Shown: piece after piece, positions 1,173 through 7,249 of the stretch | Layout of the letters: each line of letters starts with the position of its first letter | How positions within the stretch are numbered: position 1 is the first letter of the stretch | From: a virus | Lineage: Duplodnaviria > Heunggongvirae > Uroviricota > Caudoviricetes | IMG/VR virus record: IMGVR_UViG_2537561687_000016 | Span: 1 to 10,844 of that record | Reading direction: 5' to 3' (one strand) | DNA length: 10,844 bases | Position numbers and translations under genes: made by a program | The notes under the pieces: model-generated | The model's input: only the letters and a program-made list of their open reading frames with translations | Databases searched by the model: none | What the model was told of the DNA's origin: nothing

Positions 1173-3920
1173 ATGAATGTTGACATTAAACATTTTGAAC
1201 ACATTATTAAAGCTGCAGATGACAACTCACTAGCAATTTTTGTCGGAGCTGGGGTATCTAAATCAGCGGAGAATGATACAACCAAATTACCTACATGGTC
1301 AGATTTGATCGAAGAGTTAAAAATAGATCTTGGTATAACCTATGAATTAGATTACCTGAAAGTGGCACAATTATATTTTTTAGAATTTGGTCCTCATACT
1401 TACTATAAGAAAATCAAAAAGTATTTCCCTGACAATCTTGTTCCATCTAAAATACATGAATTAATTTTTGGGATAAATCCGCATTATGTAATTACTACAA
1501 ATTGGGATTGTCTGCTTGAGACTTCGATGTTAGAAAATGCATATATTTATGACTTGGTTTGCAGTGATCAGGATCTAATGAAATCAAGCCTTGATAAAAA
1601 ACTTATTAAAATGCATGGTGATTTCAAGAATCATAATATAGTTTTCAAAGAAGATGATTACATCAATTATGAATTTAATTTTCCATTGTTGTCGAATTAT
1701 ATAAAGAGCATATTATCAACTCACACAATAATTTTTATTGGCTATTCTTATAGTGATATTGATATTAAGCAAATAATAAAATGGGCTCAAAATCATACAT
1801 CGATACGCCCTCCAATGTATTTGTTGGTGTATGAAAATGACGTTGTGCAAAGTCGGTACTTAGCAAGTCATGGTGTGCAGACTCTCATGGCAGGAGATTA
1901 CAATGGTGGTGGGTATTCTGATTATCGAACTAACAAATTATATGGTTTTCTGAAGTCAGTAAAAGATAAAAAAGTTAGTAGTAGTGTTGATAAAAGTGTA
2001 ATTAATATTGTTTTTGCAAAGTTAGCAGAGCTTGGAACATTAAATGCAATATTAGCCGATCAGATTACTAGTTGTTTAGGTGAATGTTATATAGTTTATC
2101 GTGAGGTTGAAAATCGTCAGGTTGCATTATTAAAGTTCTATAGGAATGAAGCAACTCAGTTACAAAATGCAGAGCTCAGAGAAATTTATGCTAAATTTAA
2201 AAGAATTATAAAGACTAGCGATGATACAGGAGAGCATAGAAACTTACTTGGACCAATATTTGATATATTACAAAAAGCAGATATTGCTGGTGTAATCTGC
2301 GACGATGAAGACAAAGAAGCTGTTTTGACTCGTGATATGGCAACAACTCCTGTGAGAAAAAAAGCAGTTGAGGTTTTTAGGTTTGATTATAATAATAAAT
2401 TTGATTTTAGTAAAAAAAATAAATCAATTATGAATTTAAGCTTCGATAAAACAGATCCTTATCTATTTTATCAGCAATGTGATTTTGAAATGGCTTATCA
2501 TGCGGTTGATATTATAATTAAGCATGAGTTGAAGCATAAAAACTATGCCTCATTACTTATATCCCTTTTAAACCATAATATGATTTTACATGTTTTAAAA
2601 AATAGTTTTTTTCACAGGCGAGATAATTTCAGCGATTCAGAATCTTATGATATTAATGAGAGGTTTGACAACTTTCCAAAAAACGTGAAGAGATCACTAT
2701 CTACTTTGTTAGATATTGTTAATGTTGATTATATGTTCAAGTTTATACATTCTGTAGATAAGATACTAACAAAAAATAAAGATAGAGAAGATAAGAAGAC
2801 TTTTTTTTACTTGGATGCTGAAGAGTATAAAACTGATTTTGTTCATAAAAATATACTTTACTTCATAAAAGAAAATGGTTGTCTTGTTGATAACTATTCT
2901 GAGTTTAAATATGCTATTAATAAGATATTTGAGATAAAGGCTACAAAGCAAAAATCACAGGTAAATAATGATTCGATATTGTTTTCATTAGAGGAATTAT
3001 ACTCTGCAATTAAGTATTTAGAAAGTAATAGCCTTAAGGAAAAATTCAAATATAAAAAGAGAAATAAATATCTGAAGTTAGAATTAGATAGTGAAAGTGC
3101 AGAATGGTTGTTGAATCATGCTTTCAAGGAGTTGAGTCAGTTTTATAGAGAGAAAAAAGGAGTAGGTAATTATCATTTGGAGTCATTTAAAAATGCACTT
3201 TATCTTTTAGCCTTTTCTGATGAAAGCCATAATGATAAGGAATTGATTTATAGAGAGTTAATTGGCTTGGTTAGTGGTGATTACAATCAACTCGATTTTA
3301 TTGATTGCATTACTGAATATGTGACAATCTGTTTTAATAATAAAGGGAAGATAGATTTAGAGTTTATAAGAGGTTTGATGAATGGTTTGATTGAAAATTA
3401 TTCGTCATCAACAATTAAACAGAGACGCTACTTCAATAATATATTGAACTCTGCACGTAATATTTTCATCATTGCTAATGAGTTAGGTTTATCATTTGAT
3501 AATCATGTCTTATTGAAGCAATTATTATCGTCGGTAAATGATTGCGAATCTATCGAAAAAATTAGAACTGTAGAAACCATTATTTACGAACTTTTTATTG
3601 TTGGGGATGAACTGACTAAGAAAATGATAAAGGAGTTTATTAGTTTACTTGATATAGAACAATTTGGACACGATAAAAAAATCAAGTTTAAACTTTTTTT
3701 ATTGGCTGCTAGCATAATTGAAAAAGATGATCGTATAGCTAATGATACTCTTACTATGATTAAAAATTTATCCAAGAATAAATTTAGTTCGGAATTGTAC
3801 TCAATGAGAAATACACTCGAATTTTTAGTTAATAATAAAAAGATGCAGGAATTTTCTGAATCTTATGACGAAATAAAAAAAGTGATCTCACTTTTAGAAA
3901 ATAAATATCTAAGTCATTAA
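1173..3920 (+). CDS. SIR2-like (SIR2_2-type) domain protein, 915 aa, with large C-terminal domain of unknown function; candidate single-gene anti-phage defence protein (DSR-like)
   Basis: Complete ORF, ATG 1173 to TAA 3918-3920. N-terminal approx 230 aa show SIR2-like hallmarks: Rossmann FVGAGVSKS (res 23-31), TWSDL, ITTNWD with Asn110 (nt 1500-1502), KMHGD with His148 (nt 1614-1616), FIGYSYSDID (res 188-197). No Walker A or other catalytic motif seen in the remaining ~650 aa. Strongly AT-rich versus the flanking backbone. Confidence 0.75.
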   Translation: MNVDIKHFEHIIKAADDNSLAIFVGAGVSKSAENDTTKLPTWSDLIEELKIDLGITYELDYLKVAQLYFLEFGPHTYYKKIKKYFPDNLVPSKIHELIFGINPHYVITTNWDCLLETSMLENAYIYDLVCSDQDLMKSSLDKKLIKMHGDFKNHNIVFKEDDYINYEFNFPLLSNYIKSILSTHTIIFIGYSYSDIDIKQIIKWAQNHTSIRPPMYLLVYENDVVQSRYLASHGVQTLMAGDYNGGGYSDYRTNKLYGFLKSVKDKKVSSSVDKSVINIVFAKLAELGTLNAILADQITSCLGECYIVYREVENRQVALLKFYRNEATQLQNAELREIYAKFKRIIKTSDDTGEHRNLLGPIFDILQKADIAGVICDDEDKEAVLTRDMATTPVRKKAVEVFRFDYNNKFDFSKKNKSIMNLSFDKTDPYLFYQQCDFEMAYHAVDIIIKHELKHKNYASLLISLLNHNMILHVLKNSFFHRRDNFSDSESYDINERFDNFPKNVKRSLSTLLDIVNVDYMFKFIHSVDKILTKNKDREDKKTFFYLDAEEYKTDFVHKNILYFIKENGCLVDNYSEFKYAINKIFEIKATKQKSQVNNDSILFSLEELYSAIKYLESNSLKEKFKYKKRNKYLKLELDSESAEWLLNHAFKELSQFYREKKGVGNYHLESFKNALYLLAFSDESHNDKELIYRELIGLVSGDYNQLDFIDCITEYVTICFNNKGKIDLEFIRGLMNGLIENYSSSTIKQRRYFNNILNSARNIFIIANELGLSFDNHVLLKQLLSSVNDCESIEKIRTVETIIYELFIVGDELTKKMIKEFISLLDIEQFGHDKKIKFKLFLLAASIIEKDDRIANDTLTMIKNLSKNKFSSELYSMRNTLEFLVNNKKMQEFSESYDEIKKVISLLENKYLSH

Positions 3921-3984
3921 AGTAACTTTTATGATTTTTTATTATCGATAATTGCAGCAATTATAAGATGAGCGTTAGTGCGCA

Positions 3985-4003
3985 GTGCTTTCCCCGCCTC
4001 GCC
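3985..4003. other. cos site core (P2/P4-type 19-nt cohesive end sequence)
   Basis: GTGCTTTCCCCGCCTCGCC at 3985-4003 is the exact reverse complement of GGCGAGGCGGGGAAAGCAC, which I recall as the 19-nt cohesive end of P2/P4. Immediately followed by a GC-rich stem (4003-4008 pairing with 4017-4022) and TTTT. Confidence 0.7.
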
Positions 4004-4104
4004 CGCCCGCTTTGCGGGGCGGTTTTAATGCAGTTGCACTGACACGCTCAGGCCGTGCCGGGCGTGGCCTGGTATACAGAAAATGAGGCAGGAAAACGCA
4101 TGCA

Positions 4105-4137
4105 AAGCCATGCACCTTATCGATGCATGGCTTTTTT
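4105..4137 (+). terminator. Rho-independent terminator-like hairpin (plus-strand orientation)
   Basis: AAGCCATGCA (4105-4114) pairs with TGCATGGCTT (4124-4133), 9-nt loop, followed by a T-run (4132-4137). Lies between cos and the 3' end of psu, positioned to stop read-through from the int/cargo side. Confidence 0.5.
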
Positions 4138-4167
4138 CAGTAAAAACGGGCGGATTTTCGGGGAATT

Positions 4168-4740
4168 TTACACAGACTGACGTGATGCCAGTTGCGCACT
4201 TTTACGCGAAAAAATCATGTTCTGCGCAGGAGTGAATTTTTCACGGCTGTCATCCACCGAAGCCGCGTCAGGCCTGAATCCGATGGTCGTTAAAATGTCG
4301 CTATCCTGTGCGGAATAATTAATTTTTTCACCCTTCGCAAGCCAGGACAGAAGGGCTTCACGCAGGGCATCTGTGGCACGCTGTATGGCACAGTTTCGGG
4401 CAATGGCCGTCAGCTCACTGTAGCCCATCAGCTCCGGTGCCAGTGCCGCCGCCAGTGCTGTGCCGTGCTGCTGCATAAAATCATTCAGCCGGTCGCGGAT
4501 GCTGATGTGCTGAACGGCTTCATGCGAACGAATATAACGACCGGCGGCCTGATTCACCTGCCATTTTCTGACTTCGATAATATTGCGTAATTCGTCCAGG
4601 CGACTGACGTTTCTGCCTTCTCCTGACAGAAGCCGCAGATATTCCTGTTCGGCCGCTGCCAGCTCATTTTTGCGTTGCAGCCATGCTGCTTTGTTATTCT
4701 GACAGGTGTCAAAGGCCTGCTGTAAGGCTGTGCTTTCCAT
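4168..4740 (-). CDS. psu: Psu-like polarity suppression / capsid decoration protein, 190 aa
   Basis: 190-aa ORF, same length as P4 Psu; N-terminus MESTALQQAFDTCQNNKAAWLQRKNELAAAEQEY matches my recollection of P4 Psu. Last gene of the minus-strand sid-delta-psu operon. Confidence 0.85.
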   Translation of the reverse strand: MESTALQQAFDTCQNNKAAWLQRKNELAAAEQEYLRLLSGEGRNVSRLDELRNIIEVRKWQVNQAAGRYIRSHEAVQHISIRDRLNDFMQQHGTALAAALAPELMGYSELTAIARNCAIQRATDALREALLSWLAKGEKINYSAQDSDILTTIGFRPDAASVDDSREKFTPAQNMIFSRKSAQLASRQSV

Positions 4741-4813
4741 CGTTATCTCTTTCTCATCATGCTGAAGAATAAAAATACGGTGTGCGGCGACGGCCGGTGT
4801 TAACCGGCAGCCC

Positions 4814-5314
4814 TCATTCCAGACGCAGCGAATATGATTGTGTTTTTAACCGTACTGGCGGCAGTTCCTGTTTTTCATGCAGGCGTTCTGCCAGTTCGTC
4901 CGGCGTGACCGGGCGGACAATGAAGCGGTTGATGGTCTGAAGCGTTTTAAACACCAGACCACAGCCCGGATCCGTGCACACATAAAAACGCTCGGTGACT
5001 TCCTGAGACAGACGCCGCGATGTTCTTGACAGTGCAAGGCCTTTACATCTCCGACAACAATATCCGGTAACAAGCATTCTTTTCGGGCGTTTCATACTGC
5101 CGGAGGCTGACGTCAGTGAATCGCGGTATCTCTGTTTGCCTGAAATGTATTCCATTCCTGAATCTTTACTGTCAGAGAAAAAGCTTTCACTCGCTTCAAA
5201 TGTCGCAGAGCAATAAATATTCCGGCACTGTGCAATCATTATCTTGGTGCCATCGTCCATGAAATGTGCGCGACGGGTGTGAGCAACATGTCCACACGAC
5301 GGGCAGTAAATCAT
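4814..5314 (-). CDS. delta: Delta-like late transcriptional activator (tandem Ogr-type zinc fingers), 166 aa
   Basis: 166 aa, same length as P4 Delta. Two Cys-rich Ogr-like modules (MIYCPSCGH...C...C and CRRC...CTDPGCG). Start codon overlaps the sid stop (ATGA at 5311-5314). Confidence 0.85.
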   Translation of the reverse strand: MIYCPSCGHVAHTRRAHFMDDGTKIMIAQCRNIYCSATFEASESFFSDSKDSGMEYISGKQRYRDSLTSASGSMKRPKRMLVTGYCCRRCKGLALSRTSRRLSQEVTERFYVCTDPGCGLVFKTLQTINRFIVRPVTPDELAERLHEKQELPPVRLKTQSYSLRLE

Positions 5315-6044
5315 GACAGCAGTCCTCTGGCCTTAAGCTCTGCTCCCTGCTGGTCTATTTTGTCCTGCCACACCTTGCGCTGTGCCGGTGTGCCTGCCAC
5401 CTCATAATCCATGTGCGGGAGTGTTGCCGCTGACAGTCCGGTCAGCCGGAGAACCGGCTCGCCGGTGAGGCTGATTTGCATCTGTTTAATTTTCTGTTCC
5501 AGCGATGATTTCACCTGCTGCATGACAGCCTTTTCCGGTGCGACGTAGCCCTGATGGCCGGTGGTGTTGGCGAGCGGATTTTCCTGTACCAGAATGCTCA
5601 GATGCATTGCCCGGACAAGCGCCTCACAGGTTTCATTCAGGGCGTGTTCCAGCTCATGCTCTGCATACAGACTCAGAAGGTGATGATGTGCCTTCCGGTA
5701 GGCGGTGGCCGTGCTGTCACACGCCCCTTTCAGGCGTTCCGTTCAAAATTCAGCACCACGGCCAGATTGTCATATTCCTGTACCAGCTCCCGGCGTGCCA
5801 CGCGCTCAATGTGGCGCTGTTTCAGCTCGTCGCTCAGGACACCACCGGCTGCACGAAAGGCCGTGCGCCAGTCGTCAGCGTCGTTTCCGTCGGCCTGCGC
5901 CAGCGCATTTTTTTCCTGCTCTGCCCGTTCAATGGCCGTGACGGTCTCATCCATCAGGCGGGCGTTCTCAAGATGGGCGGCTCTGGCCTTTTCCAGTTGT
6001 GCCAGTGCGGGTTGCAGATATTCAGGGATGGTGTTGTCAGACAT
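5311..6044 (-). pseudogene. sid: sid-like capsid size determination gene with an apparent 1-nt frameshift (two ORF fragments)
   Basis: N-terminal fragment (ATG at 6044-6042 with AGGAG RBS, to TGA at 5732-5730) begins MSDNTIPEYLQPALAQLEKARAAH. C-terminal fragment continues in another frame to TGA at 5313-5311. Total span 734 nt, one short of the 735 nt needed for a 244-aa Sid plus stop. Frame switch lies around 5725-5740. Confidence 0.6.
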
Positions 6045-6116
6045 TTTCCGGCTCCTCGTCACTTCAGGTTAAGAAAATTGTGACGTACACCGGACAACAA
6101 CACGACGCATTGCAGA

Positions 6117-6134
6117 TGTGCCAGCCCTGACACA
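6117..6134 (-). promoter_or_regulatory. TGT-N12-ACA dyad, candidate Delta/Ogr activator site of the leftward late promoter (P_sid-like)
   Basis: TGTGCCAGCCCTGACACA at 6117-6134. Centre is about 80 bp upstream of the sid ATG (6044), compatible with the roughly -55 position of Ogr/Delta sites at P2/P4 late promoters. Confidence 0.5.
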
Positions 6135-6213
6135 GGAGACTCATCCTCAGACCGGCAAGCCAGGAAAAGGTCGCAGGAAAAACCGGCTTACTGTTTGTTT
6201 TTTTATATTTTAC

Positions 6214-6317
6214 TGTTCACCTCTGTTCACCATAAGAAAAAAGATAAGTAATACAGTAAGTTAAAGGGTGAACAATCGCAGTAATGACTGTTCACCGTCT
6301 GTTCACCACTGTTCACC
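6214..6317. repeat. Iteron array: five direct copies and one inverted copy of TGTTCACC, candidate alpha-binding replication origin (P4 ori-like)
   Basis: Direct copies at 6214-6221, 6224-6231, 6289-6296, 6300-6307, 6310-6317 (spacing 10-11 bp); inverted copy GGTGAACA at 6267-6274. TGTTCACC is, as I recall, the type I iteron bound by P4 alpha at ori and crr. Array lies about 4.7 kb upstream of the projected alpha 3' end. Confidence 0.6.
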
Positions 6318-6420
6318 CGCTGATGGACTTTTTGTGCTGTTTACTACTGTTTGTTTTTATTAATTCGCCGTGAATGAATAAGAAGAAACGATTTGTATTT
6401 CACTATAAAAATTACGAATT

Positions 6421-6450
6421 GCTTTAAGTGGCTTTAAATGACTTTAAGTG
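6421..6450. repeat. Three tandem 10-bp repeats (GCTTTAAGTG / GCTTTAAATG / ACTTTAAGTG), candidate regulator binding sites
   Basis: Perfectly contiguous decamers with 1-2 mismatches, about 27 bp upstream of the rightward TGT-N12-ACA dyad. Function unknown. Confidence 0.4.
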
Positions 6451-6476
6451 GAGATGAACAAAAAACACACAGCCAT

Positions 6477-6494
6477 TGTAAGGCTGCCGGAACA
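6477..6494 (+). promoter_or_regulatory. TGT-N12-ACA dyad, candidate Delta/Ogr activator site of the rightward late promoter (P_LL-like) upstream of vis
   Basis: TGTAAGGCTGCCGGAACA at 6477-6494; centre about 110 bp upstream of the vis ATG (6597). Confidence 0.45.
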
Positions 6495-6596
6495 AATCCC
6501 CCCTGTTGCGTCTGCCAAAAATATTCACAAAATAAAGCGCTACCCGAAGCCGGACGGACTTATCCGGTGCTGTATGGACATTAACGAGGTAGCCCG

Positions 6597-6863
6597 ATGC
6601 AAGCTGTTTTTTCTTCCCCGTCTCCCGCCCCTGTGACGCCACTGATGCCGCTGCCGGACATCACGCAGGAGCGTTTTTTACGTCTGCCGGAAGTGATGCA
6701 CCTGTGCGGCCTGTCACGCTCGACCATCTACGAACTCATCCGTAAGGGGGAATTTCCGCCGCAGGTGAGTCTTGGCGGTAAAAATGTGGCCTGGCTGCAC
6801 TCTGAAGTCACCGCATGGATGGCCGGACGCATTGCCGGACGCAAACGGGGGTACGACGCATGA
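6597..6863 (+). CDS. vis: Vis-like (AlpA-family) small HTH DNA-binding regulator/excisionase, 88 aa
   Basis: 88 aa, same length as P4 orf88 (Vis). HTH-like core [27 protein letters not shown] typical of AlpA/Vis regulators. GAGG RBS at 6586-6589. Confidence 0.8.
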
Positions 6864-6898
6864 TGATGCCCGCTCTGCAAAAACTCCCTTTTTCTGGC

Positions 6899-6928
6899 TT
6901 GCCTTTTTCCGGCATTTGCGGATATAGT
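6899..6928 (+). promoter_or_regulatory. Candidate sigma70 promoter (P_LE-like) for the immunity/early operon
   Basis: TTGCCT (6899-6904), 18-nt spacer, TATAGT (6923-6928). A perfect 7-bp hairpin follows at 6935-6954 (GCTGCCG / CGGCAGC). Pattern match only. Confidence 0.35.
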
Positions 6929-7249
6929 TTTTCCGCTGCCGCAAAATCGGCAGCCGGGCGTGAGAACCCGAGTAAGTCAAAGGCGACATATGACGCGCCA
7001 TGCGTCTTTTTTTGTGTCGCAATCAACGCCACAGAGCGCCAGATTATGGTGTGGCGTGTGGTTTGCCGTGCAGGTATGATCCTGTTCGCAATCGCATGTT
7101 ATGCCACTGAGTCAATGGTAGCTCAGGCGGGGCAGCCTCCGGGCTGGCCGGTATCCTATGACGCCGGTATTCTCACCCCCGTCTGGGCTATCGCCATCGA
7201 GCGTGAGAACTCCGGCGATAGCGTTATTTGCTACTCAGGAGGCTGCCTT

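Follow-up and report, generated by a model that had tools for sequence, protein, structure and literature searches.

A distant DSR2 homologue as the sole cargo of the int-psu hotspot in a P4-like satellite

The stretch of DNA analysed here (the window, 10,844 nucleotides (nt)) is from IMG/VR virus record IMGVR_UViG_2537561687_000016, and it carries a P4-like satellite: its backbone is 98.8% identical to phage P4 over window positions 4004-6600, and the identity reaches the P4 terminal nucleotide. A variable slot lies between two flanking genes. On its left is int, encoding a P4-type tyrosine integrase of 389 amino acids (aa) (1-1170, + strand; Pfam Arm-DNA-bind_3, Phage_int_M and Phage_integrase), and on its right is psu, encoding the polarity suppression / capsid decoration protein (4168-4740, - strand; Pfam Psu, E 1.3e-88; 98.8% identity to P4). 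The right limit of the slot is cos (3985-4003), a 19-nt sequence read directly as GTGCTTTCCCCGCCTCGCC, which, as the reverse complement of GGCGAGGCGGGGAAAGCAC, we take to be the P2/P4 cohesive-end sequence; the P2 cos region aligns at 89-92% around window 3975-4050. From the int stop codon (1168-1170) to cos, the segment holds only one open reading frame (ORF) of 915 aa (1173-3920, + strand, ATG start, TAA stop) and a 64-nt AT-rich spacer between its stop codon and cos (3921-3984), P4 identity beginning at 4004. The product of this sole hotspot cargo gene, WP_001552601, is a DSR2-like defence-associated sirtuin.

DSR2 (defence-associated sirtuin 2) is reportedly known from Bacillus subtilis 29R through the 2022 work of Garb and colleagues; it is an anti-phage protein that depletes cellular NAD+ on sensing a phage protein. 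The slot itself is a published defence hotspot: the P4 psu-int hotspot was defined by Rousset et al. (2022; PMC9122126), who validated seven defence systems from it by experiment and entered WP_001552601 in their Table S1A as a single-gene "SIR2_2" arrangement. The original prediction, made from the sequence of the window, had placed a lone 915-aa cargo ORF in a known defence hotspot of a P4-like satellite, and it was right on all three counts. The hotspot, and the presence of this exact protein in it, were therefore catalogued in 2022; what is new is the DSR2 assignment of this satellite-borne enterobacterial branch.

The N-terminal 298 aa (window 1173-2066, + strand) form a SIR2 NADase domain, whose Rossmann motif, GAGxS, is at aa 25-29; W42 and D112 belong to the C-pocket, and N110 and H148 are the catalytic residues. 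The SIR2-like N-terminus had also been predicted, and Pfam profile search bears it out: SIR2_2 (PF13289) matches residues 106-237 at E 1.4e-22 and 80.8 bits (cut-off 24.5). Of the proteins with solved structures, Bacillus subtilis DSR2 is the nearest in sequence (E 2.7e-32), over residues 8-293 only. Mutation of DSR2 residues W59, N133, D135 and H171 abolishes NADase activity or defence (PMC10981675). These align to W42, N110, D112 and H148 of the 915-aa protein, all four of which are invariant in an alignment of 38 homologues with identities down to 33%. Mean identity to the query within this family is 65% in the SIR2 core and 19-25% in the C-terminal solenoid described below; a conserved SIR2 core joined to a highly variable solenoid is what one would expect if an effector were fused to a sensor that evolves fast in an arms race.

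The rest of the protein follows the DSR2 plan, for which domain limits of 299-547 and 548-1005 have been given (PMC11850899). A middle region of approximate limits (aa ~299-545; window 2067-2807, + strand), comprising a hairpin-bearing (beta) linker and a helical bundle, was delimited by AlphaFold2 (AF2) model and profile alignment as the equivalent of DSR2 MID; a low-confidence loop falls at residues 542-547 of the model. After it comes a HEAT-like alpha-solenoid (aa ~546-915; window 2808-3917, + strand), the most variable part of the family and the presumed sensor of a phage protein. The full-length AF2 model, built on the 38-homologue alignment, had a predicted local distance difference test score (pLDDT) of 81.6 and a predicted template modelling (TM) score (pTM) of 0.67. 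In Foldseek its top 45 matches were all DSR2, and it aligned with the DSR2 cryo-electron microscopy (cryo-EM) chains over ~1000 columns at TM 0.63-0.67, 16% identity and E ~1e-22. To rule out a match carried by SIR2, residues 300-915 were modelled separately (pLDDT 80.6, pTM 0.77). The top 36 matches of this model were again all DSR2, with query-normalised TM (TMq) <=0.62, and target-normalised TM (TMt) was 0.53-0.55 against DSR2 chains consisting of the C-terminal domain (CTD) only; below DSR2 came only generic HEAT/ARM proteins, at TM <=0.28.

Sequence evidence leads to the same family by a less direct route. The family profile is collinear with DSR2 residues 26-925 (E 3.3e-51). The C-terminal profile on its own gave no DSR2 match among PDB sequences at E <= 10, and homology was therefore sought through intermediates of ~1000 aa. 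Seeding a word-indexed homologue search with the SIR2 fragment of DSR2 gave fragments of <=515 aa only, and no full-length DSR2. When 1.84 billion cluster representatives were searched exhaustively with the C-terminal profile, 242 clusters matched. In all 81 full-length proteins among them the C-terminal module is preceded by the same N-terminal SIR2 domain, which makes this a fixed architecture. At the weak end of the matches were ~1000-aa proteins whose SIR2 domains are 34-36% identical to ours and 34-38% identical to that of DSR2. The C-terminal profile of this ~1000-aa class matched ours by hhalign (99.9%, E 1.2e-33, 524 columns), and it also aligned to DSR2 itself, at residues 434-999 (E 1.2e-12) and, at E 4.7e-13, in 8YGO and 8YGK, constructs of the CTD only. 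The fold match and the bridge through the ~1000-aa class together support homology to DSR2 over the full length of the protein, at a considerable distance.

The original prediction had put the protein closest to DSR-type proteins and proposed structure prediction with a fold search. That search, with DSR2 as top match at TM 0.63-0.67, together with the catalytic residues and the bridged C-terminal homology, narrows the placement to DSR2. It also answers the question that had been left, whether the protein belongs to a described family or a new one: it is a distant member of the DSR2 family, not a new kind of system. DSR1 was considered and rejected: the PADLOC Dsr1 models were silent at E <= 1, though the SIR2 domain of DSR2, run as a control, matches them, and there was no DSR1 structure among the fold matches.

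Several points besides the failed direct match of the C-terminal profile weigh against the DSR2 assignment and its functional reading. The protein shares just 16% identity with DSR2 overall, and about 12% across the C-terminal region. It falls ~90 aa short of the length of DSR2, the deficit being at the C-terminal end, so that ligand-binding geometry may differ; the AF2 structure, moreover, is a monomer prediction. PADLOC, another check proposed with the original prediction, gave a divided result. It recovered partial matches to the SIR2 portion only (ThsA, PDC-S25 and PDC-S65), and it gave no system-level call and no match to the Dsr1 or Dsr2 (PDLC02184) models at E <= 1. The SIR2 domain of Bacillus DSR2, however, reaches only E 2.4e-17 on the Dsr2 model (1222 positions), ranking it below ThsA; this model is narrow and weak even on authentic DSR2, and the missing Dsr2 match is therefore weak evidence. 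A different SIR2 protein of the hotspot, the 452-aa WP_001133507 (construct pFR88), protected against none of eight coliphages, and the seven systems found active do not include it (Rousset et al., 2022; PMC9122126), so a SIR2 cargo is not automatically active in standard assays; it is 25% identical to the 915-aa protein, in the SIR2 domain only. In the published literature we found no name for the 915-aa clade and no experiment on it.

Other annotation sources are no more specific. An NCBIfam scan of the full protein, and of its C-terminus separately, assigned no family. The sources label the protein "SIR2 family protein" or "hypothetical protein", a Domainator re-analysis gives "Sir2-like (likely a NADase)" for the corresponding cluster, and no database names the protein DSR2. 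Against 50,697 phage records, tblastn gave two weak matches to the SIR2 domain only (27% identity), and the gene is thus not a known phage gene.

The gene stands alone. The original prediction had remarked on the absence of a ThsB/TIR, HerA or Argonaute partner, and we likewise found none of these genes in the window or within 12 kb on either side in E. coli 120899. SIR2-HerA and SIR2-pAgo systems were rejected, there being no adjoining HerA ATPase or Argonaute gene in the window or flanks. The single-gene arrangement recurs in five other genera or loci.

Homologues number in the hundreds. The gene is 100% identical in five of 5426 complete E. coli genomes, where it is annotated "SIR2 family protein", and the exact protein sequence is on 154 contigs; relatives at >=90% identity form a Salmonella cluster of at least 1000 contigs. 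Homologues at 39-44% identity are found in P4-like satellites of Salmonella (at least 1000 contigs), Klebsiella oxytoca, Yersinia intermedia and Serratia marcescens, directly 3' of int, often overlapping its stop codon, in the same int-[gene]-psu/delta slot. In K. quasipneumoniae a homologue at 35% identity adjoins an integrase and P4-cII-like, HEPN and McrA-like genes, and one metagenomic homologue is without mobile-element marks. Conserved housekeeping contexts for close homologues had been named as a finding that would tell against a defence role; no conserved housekeeping operon was found at the homologue loci examined, the homologues being in satellites or integrase-adjacent islands.

Related satellites have a second variable slot, 3' of the alpha primase gene. 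In Salmonella its content is a reverse transcriptase (RT)-TIR fusion of 535 aa, in Klebsiella an Mrr_cat protein of 346 aa, and in Serratia a second SIR2_2 protein (loci L002/L004, 17345-18709 and 14004-15611; L005/L006, 16964-18004 and 10323-11363; L011, 15743-16721), and the slot is empty in the E. coli 120899 element. That element has a lambdoid prophage remnant on one side and the pao operon on the other; it adjoins a truncated LysR gene beside paoD and not a tRNA gene. Just 5' of it (locus L001, 7787-8560 and 10171-10383) are lambdoid tail genes, a LEM-3-like GIY-YIG protein, an AraC regulator and an insertion sequence (IS) integrase fragment.

We put at about 0.72 the probability that the gene encodes an anti-phage system of DSR2 type, made up of a single protein, which a P4-like satellite carries as its exchangeable cargo. 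Architecture, active-site conservation, full-length DSR2 homology, single-gene organisation and recurrent residence in the hotspot are what the analysis shows. For NADase activity, oligomerisation, allosteric activation, a phage trigger and protection we infer the course from the Bacillus protein. The N-terminal SIR2 domains would assemble the protein into an auto-inhibited oligomer, which in DSR2 is a tetramer in the apo state, and the divergent C-terminal alpha-solenoid would bind a protein of the infecting phage, which for DSR2 is the monomeric tail tube protein. Binding would open the SIR2 active site (W42, N110, D112, H148) allosterically, nicotinamide adenine dinucleotide (NAD+) would be hydrolysed, and the infected cell would cease to support phage replication (abortive infection). 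The clonal host population would be protected, and the resident satellite with it.

What the solenoid would sense is the point on which the strongest competing explanation turns. The protein may be a DSR2-like NADase that senses a target other than the tube (capsid, portal, sheath or a phage-induced host change), or one tuned to ignore the tube of the P2 helper while hitting competing phages; we give this a substantial chance, somewhat short of even. No other part of the family is as poorly conserved as the solenoid (19-25% identity), which shows no similarity to the DSR2 CTD in direct sequence comparison and is the part shortened by ~90 aa, and a satellite needing P2 tails would presumably face selection against sensing the tube protein of its helper. 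The trigger may therefore differ from the DSR2 tail tube or be one that spares the helper, but the MID-CTD fold is kept overall and is compatible with the same binding mode. That the satellite-borne enterobacterial clade has re-targeted its shortened solenoid off the siphovirus tail tube, and may also have been selected to tell the P2 helper from competitors, is a more speculative proposal that we consider rather doubtful.

Some SIR2 family members are deacylases or ADP-ribosyltransferases, and the function of the 915-aa protein is predicted here by homology, so it could instead serve the satellite life cycle or manipulate the host (for example as a protein deacylase or an ADP-ribosyltransferase acting on host or helper proteins), or be an inactive remnant. 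This we judge improbable. Its closest relatives are NADase defence effectors, and the slot freely exchanges unrelated defence systems as cargo; its reading frame is unbroken, and the active-site residues do not vary among the 38 homologues. Canonical P4 is without any such gene, which is thus not needed for the satellite cycle. A still poorer candidate is a Thoeris ThsA-like effector awaiting a signalling nucleotide from a TIR protein encoded elsewhere in the genome. The ThsA models do match, but over the SIR2 part only (positions 11-209 of 478), and authentic DSR2 likewise scores best on them; the lack of a ThsB/TIR gene in the window and 12-kb flanks argues the same way, and the C-terminus, a DSR2-type helical solenoid and not SLOG, effectively refutes this explanation. 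An Avs5-type pattern-recognition receptor (SIR2-STAND NTPase) is the least credible of all, since a Walker A motif (G....GK[ST]) is absent throughout the protein, no AVAST or STAND model matches it (PADLOC, Pfam), and the structural match to Avs5, ~350-390 aa, is essentially SIR2 and some helices and scores below DSR2.

The ATG of the cargo gene is 2 nt past the int stop codon and is preceded, 6 nt upstream, by the Shine-Dalgarno-like motif GGTGA (1162-1166, + strand), read directly. As the gene abuts int, it is probably co-transcribed with int or driven by a promoter inside the int 3' end. A promoter-like site matching consensus lies at 1074-1101, although such sites are about as frequent in the window as in shuffles (22 found, 19.1 expected). 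Just past cos, the consensus scan gave a terminator-like GC-rich hairpin followed by a T-run (4003-4022, + strand), and as one such site was found where 1.4 are expected in shuffles, this is weak evidence that the hairpin, which is positioned to stop transcription leaving the cargo gene, may do so. GC content is 26-33% in the ORF segment and 50-64% in the remainder of the window; stops are frequent in DNA of such low GC, and an unbroken frame of 915 codons is far beyond chance.

On its left side the hotspot seems to have its recombination boundary inside the C-terminal codons of int. The int gene is 82-95% identical to those of 508 E. coli genomes, and similarity to these P4-like integrases stops at 1106-1157, which places the cassette boundary in the last int codons; at all homologous loci compared, the int stop codon is directly adjoined or overlapped by the cargo ORF. 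The low GC of the cargo starts already in the last ~170 nt of int (window ~1000-1170). Compared with E. coli 120899, the int and SIR2 module has one difference in 4 kb and the P4 backbone ~100 differences in 6.8 kb, 49 of them in window 6000-7000. One int-cargo module on two slightly different backbones is consistent with cassette exchange by recombination.

Beyond psu lies Ogr/Delta (4814-5314, - strand; Pfam), and AlpA-, Ash- and derepression-family genes come after it (Pfam). The sid gene (5311-6045, - strand), 244 aa in P4 and in E. coli 120899, has a 1-nt deletion at ~5739 (GCGTTC-CGTTCA against GCGTTCGCGTTCA), a frameshift that leaves its first ~115 codons out of frame; it is either a pseudogene, in which case the satellite would be unable to direct small capsids, or a sequencing error. 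At 7222-7236, inside the overlapping Ash and derepression-protein ORFs, there are compensating -1 and -2 indels relative to strain 120899, in-frame overall, with ~5 codons recoded.

The assignment gives a mechanistically understood family to a widespread "SIR2 family protein" that had no more specific public name, and it extends the reach of DSR2 from Bacillus to satellite cargo of E. coli, Salmonella, Klebsiella, Yersinia and Serratia. Because PADLOC and NCBIfam both miss the protein, DSR2-type defence in Enterobacterales is probably under-counted by surveys that use models of this kind. Specialists may find the assignment unsurprising, yet it is useful for annotation and makes the gene a reasonable experimental target. 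Coliphage genetics in these hosts should make a trigger easy to find and discrimination between helper and competitor addressable; were re-targeting or discrimination true, the satellite would offer a natural model for a phage parasite keeping an abortive-infection sensor silent on its own helper.

Several known systems can be compared with this one. KomC, the SIR2 NADase of KomBC (8ZSF), is a stand-alone SIR2 protein of 264 aa that acts with a partner and has no fused sensor. Avs5 (AVAST type 5, SIR2-STAND) resembles the 915-aa protein in joining an N-terminal SIR2 effector and a C-terminal sensor in one polypeptide, but differs in having the NTPase with its Walker A motif, and its structural score is lower. 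Thoeris ThsA (SIR2-SLOG) differs in its SLOG domain and its ThsB partner, the 915-aa protein having neither and ending in a DSR2-type solenoid. The systems of the Rousset hotspot share the position, from int to cos/psu, and differ in that the protein was classed there as an uncharacterised SIR2-domain protein. DSR2 itself (cryo-EM structures 8K98, 8WKS, 8WYB, 8YG1 and others) has 1005 aa, is encoded in a Bacillus genome and has an anti-defence partner, DSAD1, whereas the protein described here has 915 aa and is gammaproteobacterial, on a P4-like satellite. DSR2 nevertheless provides the closest SIR2 domain among solved structures, with the active-site residues conserved; in both proteins MID (linker and helical bundle) and then a HEAT-like alpha-solenoid CTD follow in collinear order, and the C-terminal homology is recoverable via intermediates.

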